Source: Haplodiscus bocki (Eukaryota). Taken from it: a DNA stretch of 64,000 nt. The DNA is taken from positions 78,988,001 through 79,052,000 of the forward strand of contig OZ296650.1 of assembly GCA_965655095.1 (NCBI GenBank), in the 5' to 3' direction. Below the pieces are notes generated by a model, which worked only from the letters and a program-made list of their open reading frames with translations, was not told the origin of the DNA and ran no database searches. The translations under genes and the position numbers were made by a program. How positions within the stretch are numbered: the stretch's first letter is position 1; each line of letters begins with the position of its first letter. Below, piece by piece: positions 26,459-26,582 of the stretch.

Positions 26459-26582
26459 GGCGGGAAATAAACACCCTTCCGTCCATTTCTTCACTCACGG
26501 ACCGCGTCTTTCCCATCTTTCGACAGGAAGAAGTACGGTCCGATCCGTCGGAAACGGAGATCAAAAAGGTTATTCCCGCGCC
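26459..26582 (-). ncRNA. Conserved rod-like cis-acting RNA stem-loop (copy in LTR B)
   Basis: Same helices as in LTR C with compensatory changes: CGGACC/GGUCCG, UUCCUGUC-GAAA-GAUGGGAA, UCCGUUUC/GAAAUGGA. Confidence 0.65.

Follow-up and report, generated by a model that had tools for sequence, protein, structure and literature searches.

Twin predicted rod-like RNA folds in the LTR of a Gypsy-type element from Haplodiscus bocki, a candidate export or trafficking signal

The DNA analysed here, a 64-kb stretch from Haplodiscus bocki (the window), is rich in repeats, has a GC content of 38%, and lacks a long gene, as might be expected of animal nuclear DNA. It carries three LTR copies (B, C, and D) of an element that may resemble the retroelements of acoel flatworms. 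The initial annotation had singled out one non-coding block in these LTRs, and all three of its copies are present, at 26459-26582 (B), 24908-25031 (C), and 40561-40684 (D); no fourth copy occurs within the 64 kb. The sense strand of the block is the minus strand and is the same as that of the downstream gag-pol remains. A fourth copy, L002, lies on a public metagenome contig and is 78% identical to B over 1.5 kb; it represents one locus out of 138 candidates from one metagenome scan. The element is outlined by the following features:

25748..27521, minus strand: LTR copy B (~1.77 kb); its TG start matches L002, and its right end is approximate and abuts C
27442..27521, minus strand: last codons of a 239-aa sense accessory ORF, crossing the polypurine tract into the LTR
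26938..26962, minus strand: CRE-like palindrome and CCAAT word; position kept in the four copies, with a variant CRE in C and a variant CCAAT in D
25741..26153, minus strand: first ~138 codons of ORF1 (gag), starting inside the LTR of copy B
34750..40356, minus strand: decayed gag-pol after LTR D, with gag, reverse transcriptase, and RNase H pieces (Pfam) and, read by eye, integrase-like remnants; truncated, no 3' LTR

The assignment of these sequences as LTRs was borne out at both ends, where a polypurine tract leads to a TG start and a CA end leads to a primer site inside gag. In L002, these are the purine tract 6583-6596, the TG at 6597, the CA end at 8388, and the TGG primer-site word at 8389. 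LTR B starts at 27521 with the same ten letters as the L002 LTR. It adjoins LTR C (25740-25750) with no visible target-site duplication, and about a dozen letters are missing from the start of C. LTR D is truncated at its 5' end by another decayed Gypsy-like pol (41980-46500, plus strand).

The gag frame begins 130-140 codons inside the 1.8-kb LTR (window 26153-25741, minus strand; L002 8001-8388), so that solo LTRs bear a short open ORF, and the primer site lies ~390 nt within gag. The Ty1 primer site likewise lies in GAG (PMC4974528). With 4014 related protein clusters for the gag start, the element belongs to a large, high-copy family. Among 189 ORF1 relatives, 138 bear the motif that ends the LTR-encoded part and 51 do not. 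Right after the motif, 114 of the 138 continue into unrelated sequence (7% pairwise identity), 17 read on into gag (71%), and 7 come to a stop; the 114 include about 9 internal motif repeats misfiled by the sorting rule. The residue that follows could be encoded by an A-first codon in 112 of the 114 diverging relatives, indicating a CA end and then the primer site.

By its domain hits and their order, the element fits the Ty3/Gypsy type, with most Pfam scores below the curated cut-offs. In L002, Retrotrans_gag, zf-CCHC, aspartyl protease, and Integrase_p58_C were all detected below these cut-offs and DUF1759 above; in D, RVT_1 (below) is followed by RT_RNaseH (above). ORF1 has zinc knuckles, and the atlas hits were Retrotrans_gag/Ty3_capsid. 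The reverse transcriptase piece of D had no PDB match, and no 3' LTR for D was found within the window. L002 shows a single LTR between the pol end and the gag start, which may reflect a tandem arrangement or a collapsed assembly. The gag stop and an open pol frame overlap at L002 9617-9626, where the word TTTAAAC resembles a −1 frameshift site. In each of the four copies, gag is immediately preceded by a pyrimidine run plus AG that resembles a splice acceptor (window 26154-26180, minus strand); the public-contig joints near the gag start, in the rows examined, had no GT-AG ends on the sense strand.

Between pol and LTR, L002 carries a region of ~5.9 kb (720-6676) with several long antisense frames and one sense ORF of 239 aa; the two ORF sets start head-to-head ~400 nt apart. 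The antisense ORFs were covered by a Pfam scan and, for one of them, the atlas; one is zinc-finger-like, and the atlas leads to BED-type fingers at 0.8. The sense ORF has 2406 related clusters (547 representatives at 50%). Its product had no Pfam hit and one PDB match that was weak and probably compositional (E 0.012), and it contains no arginine-rich motif, with at most 3 Arg in 15 residues. The best-kept block of this protein fits the leucine-rich class-1a pattern of nuclear export signals (NES) in 115 of 120 relatives, a pattern also found in 29% of shuffles; a stricter pattern, picked afterwards, occurs in 0.5% of shuffles. A basic NLS-like word follows the NES-like block in 111 relatives, and the protein has a CxxC tail. 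The viral contigs searched held no relative of ORF1 or of the accessory protein.

Other repeats share the window. Remains of a LINE-type (endonuclease-RT) element lie at 7979-9907 (plus strand), and strong inverted repeats (z −7 to −8.5) at 23400-23560 and 30721-30845 are probably miniature inverted-repeat elements. Satellites of 28-30 nt and 31 nt, together with a long GAC/GAT run (N gaps) opening several frames, occupy 47480-50150, 53080-53750, 27530-27750, and 55060-56130. A second LTR-like family starts with TGTCGCAG and has a short ORF from MVSTRK; it was seen at 31443 (plus), 16158 (minus), 14900-14370 (minus), and 31885-32211 (plus). In the copy at 14900-14370, the LTR apparently ends in CACA, which would put the ORF start within the LTR here too. 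The covariance model run on the window found no rod-1 homologue in this family.

In the LTR under study, identity among the four copies is highest on a plateau of 0.77-0.78 that includes the block; ORF1 reaches 0.74 at most, and the spacer 0.26. The description of the block as the most conserved non-coding part stands; its length does not, for it extends over ~300 nt (B 26628-26321) instead of 124 and contains a second rod. This rod, overlooked earlier, sits directly behind the first, and the two fill the block end to end. The distance to gag agrees with the ~200-300 nt given before, as ORF1 starts ~305 nt away in B, ~290 nt in C, and ~205 nt in D. The parts of the block are:

26459..26582, minus strand: rod 1 core, copy B, from the fold and the four-copy comparison
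26419..26617, minus strand: rod 1, copy B, with predicted outer helices (~200 nt; weak, AU-rich)
24908..25031, minus strand: rod 1 core, copy C
40561..40684, minus strand: decayed rod 1 core of copy D; tetraloop and G·A steps persist, as do three double changes within its 6-bp helix
26330..26418, minus strand: rod 2, copy B (~90 nt), from the fold; its 3' strand bears a word resembling a TATA box or poly(A) signal
24779..24869, minus strand: rod 2, copy C; its TATA word (24803-24796) overlaps an AATAAA
40432..40520, minus strand: rod 2 region, copy D; TATA word at 40456-40449
26347..26354, minus strand: TATA-like word, copy B (degenerate)
26154..26329, minus strand: variable, ATG-poor spacer from rod 2 to the ORF1 start, a candidate for the true 5' UTR; an AATAAA-type word lies close to the end

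Rod 1 is predicted to begin with a basal helix and a tandem G·A step, to continue through an 8-bp helix into a symmetric 8x8 loop, and to finish with a 6-bp helix and an apical stem under a GAAA tetraloop closed by C-G. The 8x8 loop has two tandem G·A steps, which with the basal step makes three in rod 1. The G·A/A·G loop letters are retained in 22 of 24 cells across the four copies, the remaining two being A·A, and at the loop centre a double change replaces G·G by U-A without loss of register. These observations suggest that the loop letters pair non-canonically. Tandem sheared G·A steps within a long helix are typical protein-contact surfaces. For L002, ViennaRNA favours a different register over the 8x8 loop.

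The sense-strand rod with its GAAA loop folds as proposed in B (−58.0 kcal/mol, z −5.1) and C (−57.4 kcal/mol, z −8.0), with 0 of 200 shuffles equalling either energy, and L002 behaves similarly (−58.5, z −7.2). D alone does not adopt the rod fold (−27.7, z −0.6; equalled by 55 of 200 shuffles). The sense strand folds 12-20 kcal/mol better than the antisense strand in B, C, and L002 (20 in B and 12 in C). Strong folding as such is not unique to the rods, since other inverted repeats scored equally among 3164 windows. A second conserved LTR block (window 26750-27020, minus strand, and 25200-25460; L002 7140-7420), with ACGT-core palindromes and the CRE and CCAAT words, also folds (C 25241-25365, z −6.9), and its public-contig coverage equals that of the rods. 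Here and below, CRE, CCAAT, and E2F are names for words that we take to be these motifs.

The suggestion of a sense-strand RNA structure outside the known families agrees with the Rfam search, which gave 0 hits in the window at the gathering cut-off; in E-value mode, there were only chance-level hits, and none on rod 1. A covariance model of the rods found only its four training copies plus a weak rod 2 score (21.5 bits). DNA patterns run on viral and prokaryote collections yielded 73 loci, with no match outside the seed. Codon periodicity, named earlier as a competing source of the conservation, was checked as well and is excluded, as no frame of at least 80 codons spans the rod in all copies.

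The three pair-preserving differences between B and C that had been listed are all present in the sequence. The wider claim of covariation is carried by double changes in 4 of 47 pairs among the four copies and is suggestive only, because the structure was derived from these same sequences and 23 of 500 shuffles also reach 4. Pairing cells amount to 89.9%, versus 87.9% in shuffles (4 of 500 as high) and 43-54% in slid controls. Relative to L002, changed pairs in rod 1 are retained in 5 of 7 cases in B and 5 of 6 in C, with ~2.2 expected for each and one change common to both; D retains 7 of 19, against 6.7 expected, and has three double changes within the 6-bp helix. Among 71 columns with a Watson-Crick majority, G·U departures outnumber A·C departures 8 to 1 in L002, B, and C, pointing to selection on the sense-strand RNA, while the 1 to 6 ratio in D points to decay. 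Columns 112-118 and 139-143, where B is out of register, were omitted from the pair-keeping count and, for the most part, from the G·U count. Rod 2 showed slight pair-keeping (4/8, 1/3, and 4/9). Public contigs bearing four different organism labels cover the rod, possibly through a common hitch-hiking source; their differences, taken from the best 40 of 262, were unlinked and hence unusable as a covariation test.

The fold of rod 2 has z-scores of −8.2 in L002, −8.4 in C, −3.2 in B, and −3.1 in D; it forms nearly as well on the opposite strand, and its loop is a variable 4 nt. A TATAAA-type word lies at the 3' end of the block in three of the four copies (C, D, and L002). This TATA-like word is predicted to be base-paired in the 3' strand of rod 2. 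Past the word, a CA comes after 18 nt and leads into a U-rich stretch, and conservation drops after ~25 nt.

The initial annotation had placed the block in the leader, which now appears to be the less likely placing, as the TATA-like word ends the block and the rod region contains many ATGs. Across the four copies, the rods contain 29 ATGs and the spacer 2, where 7.3-10.3 would be expected (P about 0.004). An AATAAA-type word lies 50-60 nt before the gag start in three of the four copies. The TATA word at the block end and the ATG-poor spacer favour a U3 location, with the rod RNA then in the 3' UTR. Judged from these sequence features, the rods probably lie in U3, a placing that we rate somewhat above even odds and under which only the 3' copy would be transcribed. 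Packaging or 5' translation control would require placing in the R region. Of the three functions suggested earlier (packaging, CTE-like export, and translation), export or trafficking would fit best.

We propose, with a rough probability of 40%, that the twin rods in U3 are a protein-docking signal for export or trafficking of the element RNA. Transcription would start ~25-30 nt after the TATA word, and ribosomes would scan the ATG-poor 170-nt leader to gag. Behind the downstream AATAAA of the 3' LTR, ~240 nt beyond rod 1, the RNA would terminate, and the 3' copy of the rods would dock a protein that exports or traffics the RNA. A host factor for export or transport would be the likelier partner, the accessory protein of the element itself the less likely one.

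The latter partner would imply a Rev/Rec-like system in an invertebrate Gypsy element, with the U3 rods as the response element and the 239-aa protein as the export adaptor. Such a pair would have arisen independently of retroviruses and would rely on tandem G·A loops in place of an arginine-rich motif; we consider this a long shot. Several elements with a function in export or trafficking lie in comparable positions, and any LTR segment ahead of the poly(A) site would be near the 3' terminus of the RNA. The HERV-K RcRE lies in U3, with only the 3' copy transcribed (PMC6916052), the MMTV RmRE at the env-LTR junction (PMC2661877), and the HTLV RxRE within the 3' LTR, which the MusD MTE adjoins (PMC4588558). 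The likeness to RcRE, RxRE, and RmRE consists of a multi-stem RNA in or at the 3' LTR and of accessory ORFs in the element, one with NES-like and NLS-like words. The present case differs in its Gypsy-type element and its two unbranched rods of ~300 nt; an arginine-rich protein was not found, nor was a match in Rfam or by sequence. The MPMV/SRV CTE, likewise a long stem-loop, spans 150-175 nt and has two internal loops (PMC7551171). Rod 1 resembles it in shape only, having 124-200 nt and two conserved loops, which unlike those of the CTE differ from each other in size and letters; no kissing loop or pseudoknot was seen. The CTE has two matching loops that bind NXF1. The rods also differ from CTE and MTE in lying inside the LTR, not before it. 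At best, the twin rods would act in the manner of these export elements; they belong to none of them.

Other structured RNAs were compared with the base of rod 1, where U-G-A-U facing G-G-A gives a tandem G·A flanked by U·G, as in SECIS elements and kink-turns. SECIS was rejected, as U and not a purine stands before UGA, no AA follows 11-13 nt later, and the partner GA is 81-82 nt away and not within ~30; a loose SECIS pattern matched once elsewhere in B and nowhere in the other three copies. A kink-turn was rejected because there is no conserved 3-nt bulge, the unbulged register fitting four copies and the bulged one pairing only in B (by eye). A retrozyme-like hammerhead was also rejected, with the CUGAUGA core in 0 of 4 copies and no Rfam hit.

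The main competitor to a U3 docking signal takes the ~300-nt block as the R region, in which rod 1 would open the transcript like TAR and rod 2, by hiding a poly(A) signal, would keep the 5' LTR from being used for cleavage. This would put the rods in the leader, as first annotated, and ribosomes would have to shunt past them. The sharp edges of the block and its filling by two rods are in keeping with this arrangement, as are the CRE and CCAAT words upstream and the paired UAUAAA/AAUAAA-type word in rod 2 with its CA 18 nt on and U-rich sequence beyond. HIV-1 shares the design of two adjacent LTR hairpins, TAR and the polyA hairpin, the second of which pairs the poly(A)-signal-like word (PMC2645353). 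The rods here differ in being longer, in having a word that is mostly UAUAAA, and in the many upstream ATGs, and the placing of R is hypothetical. Scanning ribosomes would be blocked by the 29 ATGs in the block (four copies). L002 and C have a canonical AATAAA further downstream, and in L002 and D the rod 2 word looks more like a TATA box than like a poly(A) signal. We regard the R-region arrangement as rather doubtful. The block might instead act as promoter DNA, made of inverted transcription-factor sites and an old fold-back, with no role for its RNA. E2F-like words do end the arms of both rods, the block stops just beyond the TATA word, rod 2 folds on both strands, and the inverted repeats at 23400-23560 and 30721-30845 are equally strong. 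The strand-specific G·U bias, the invariant GNRA loop, the conserved G·A loops, and the double changes in the middle helix would be unexpected for double-stranded sites, which makes a purely promoter role improbable.

A signal for packaging or dimerisation bound by Gag would suit the zinc knuckles of ORF1, and GNRA-capped stems occur in retroviral packaging regions. With the primer site ~390 nt inside gag, the usual packaging zone would lie downstream; a signal in the LTR would also sit on solo-LTR and accessory RNAs, and no self-complementary loop is evident (GAAA in rod 1, a variable 4-nt loop in rod 2), so that we hold this function to be quite improbable. Precursors of small RNAs, miRNA- or siRNA-like, are very unlikely. 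The rods are long imperfect hairpins, and rod 2 gave weak miRNA-family scores (E 0.5-5), but all of these were far under the gathering cut-offs, and the invariant 4-nt loop, the 8x8 loop, and the arms of rod 1 that change in pairs are the reverse of the usual miRNA pattern.

The setting of the candidate docking signal has a partial counterpart in plant Retand, Gypsy elements with a 3-6.5 kb pol-to-LTR region and antisense ORFs (PMC11963269). The likeness to L002 is one of architecture only; the host group differs, and the present element also has a sense ORF over the polypurine tract and a gag start inside the LTR. The literature searched on Gypsy LTRs, LTR-internal gag, extra ORFs, export elements, polyA hairpins, and Ty1 signals, in which subscription journals were thinly represented, does not describe this element, and repeat libraries published with genome papers may already include the LTR. 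Structured cis-RNAs in LTR elements are known; the combination seen here, a Gypsy LTR bearing both the gag start and a twin rod with its three tandem G·A steps, appears to be new.

For vertebrate retroviruses and mouse ERVs, structured signals of export and trafficking have been charted well; for an element of this kind, the literature searched yielded no description of one. Thousands of related copies exist in public assemblies, making deep covariation analysis and end-mapping feasible. With a twin-rod signal in U3, an LTR-internal gag start, and an accessory protein that is conserved, this would count as a 'complex' Gypsy element. Such an element would be useful for asking how often retroelements have invented regulated RNA export.
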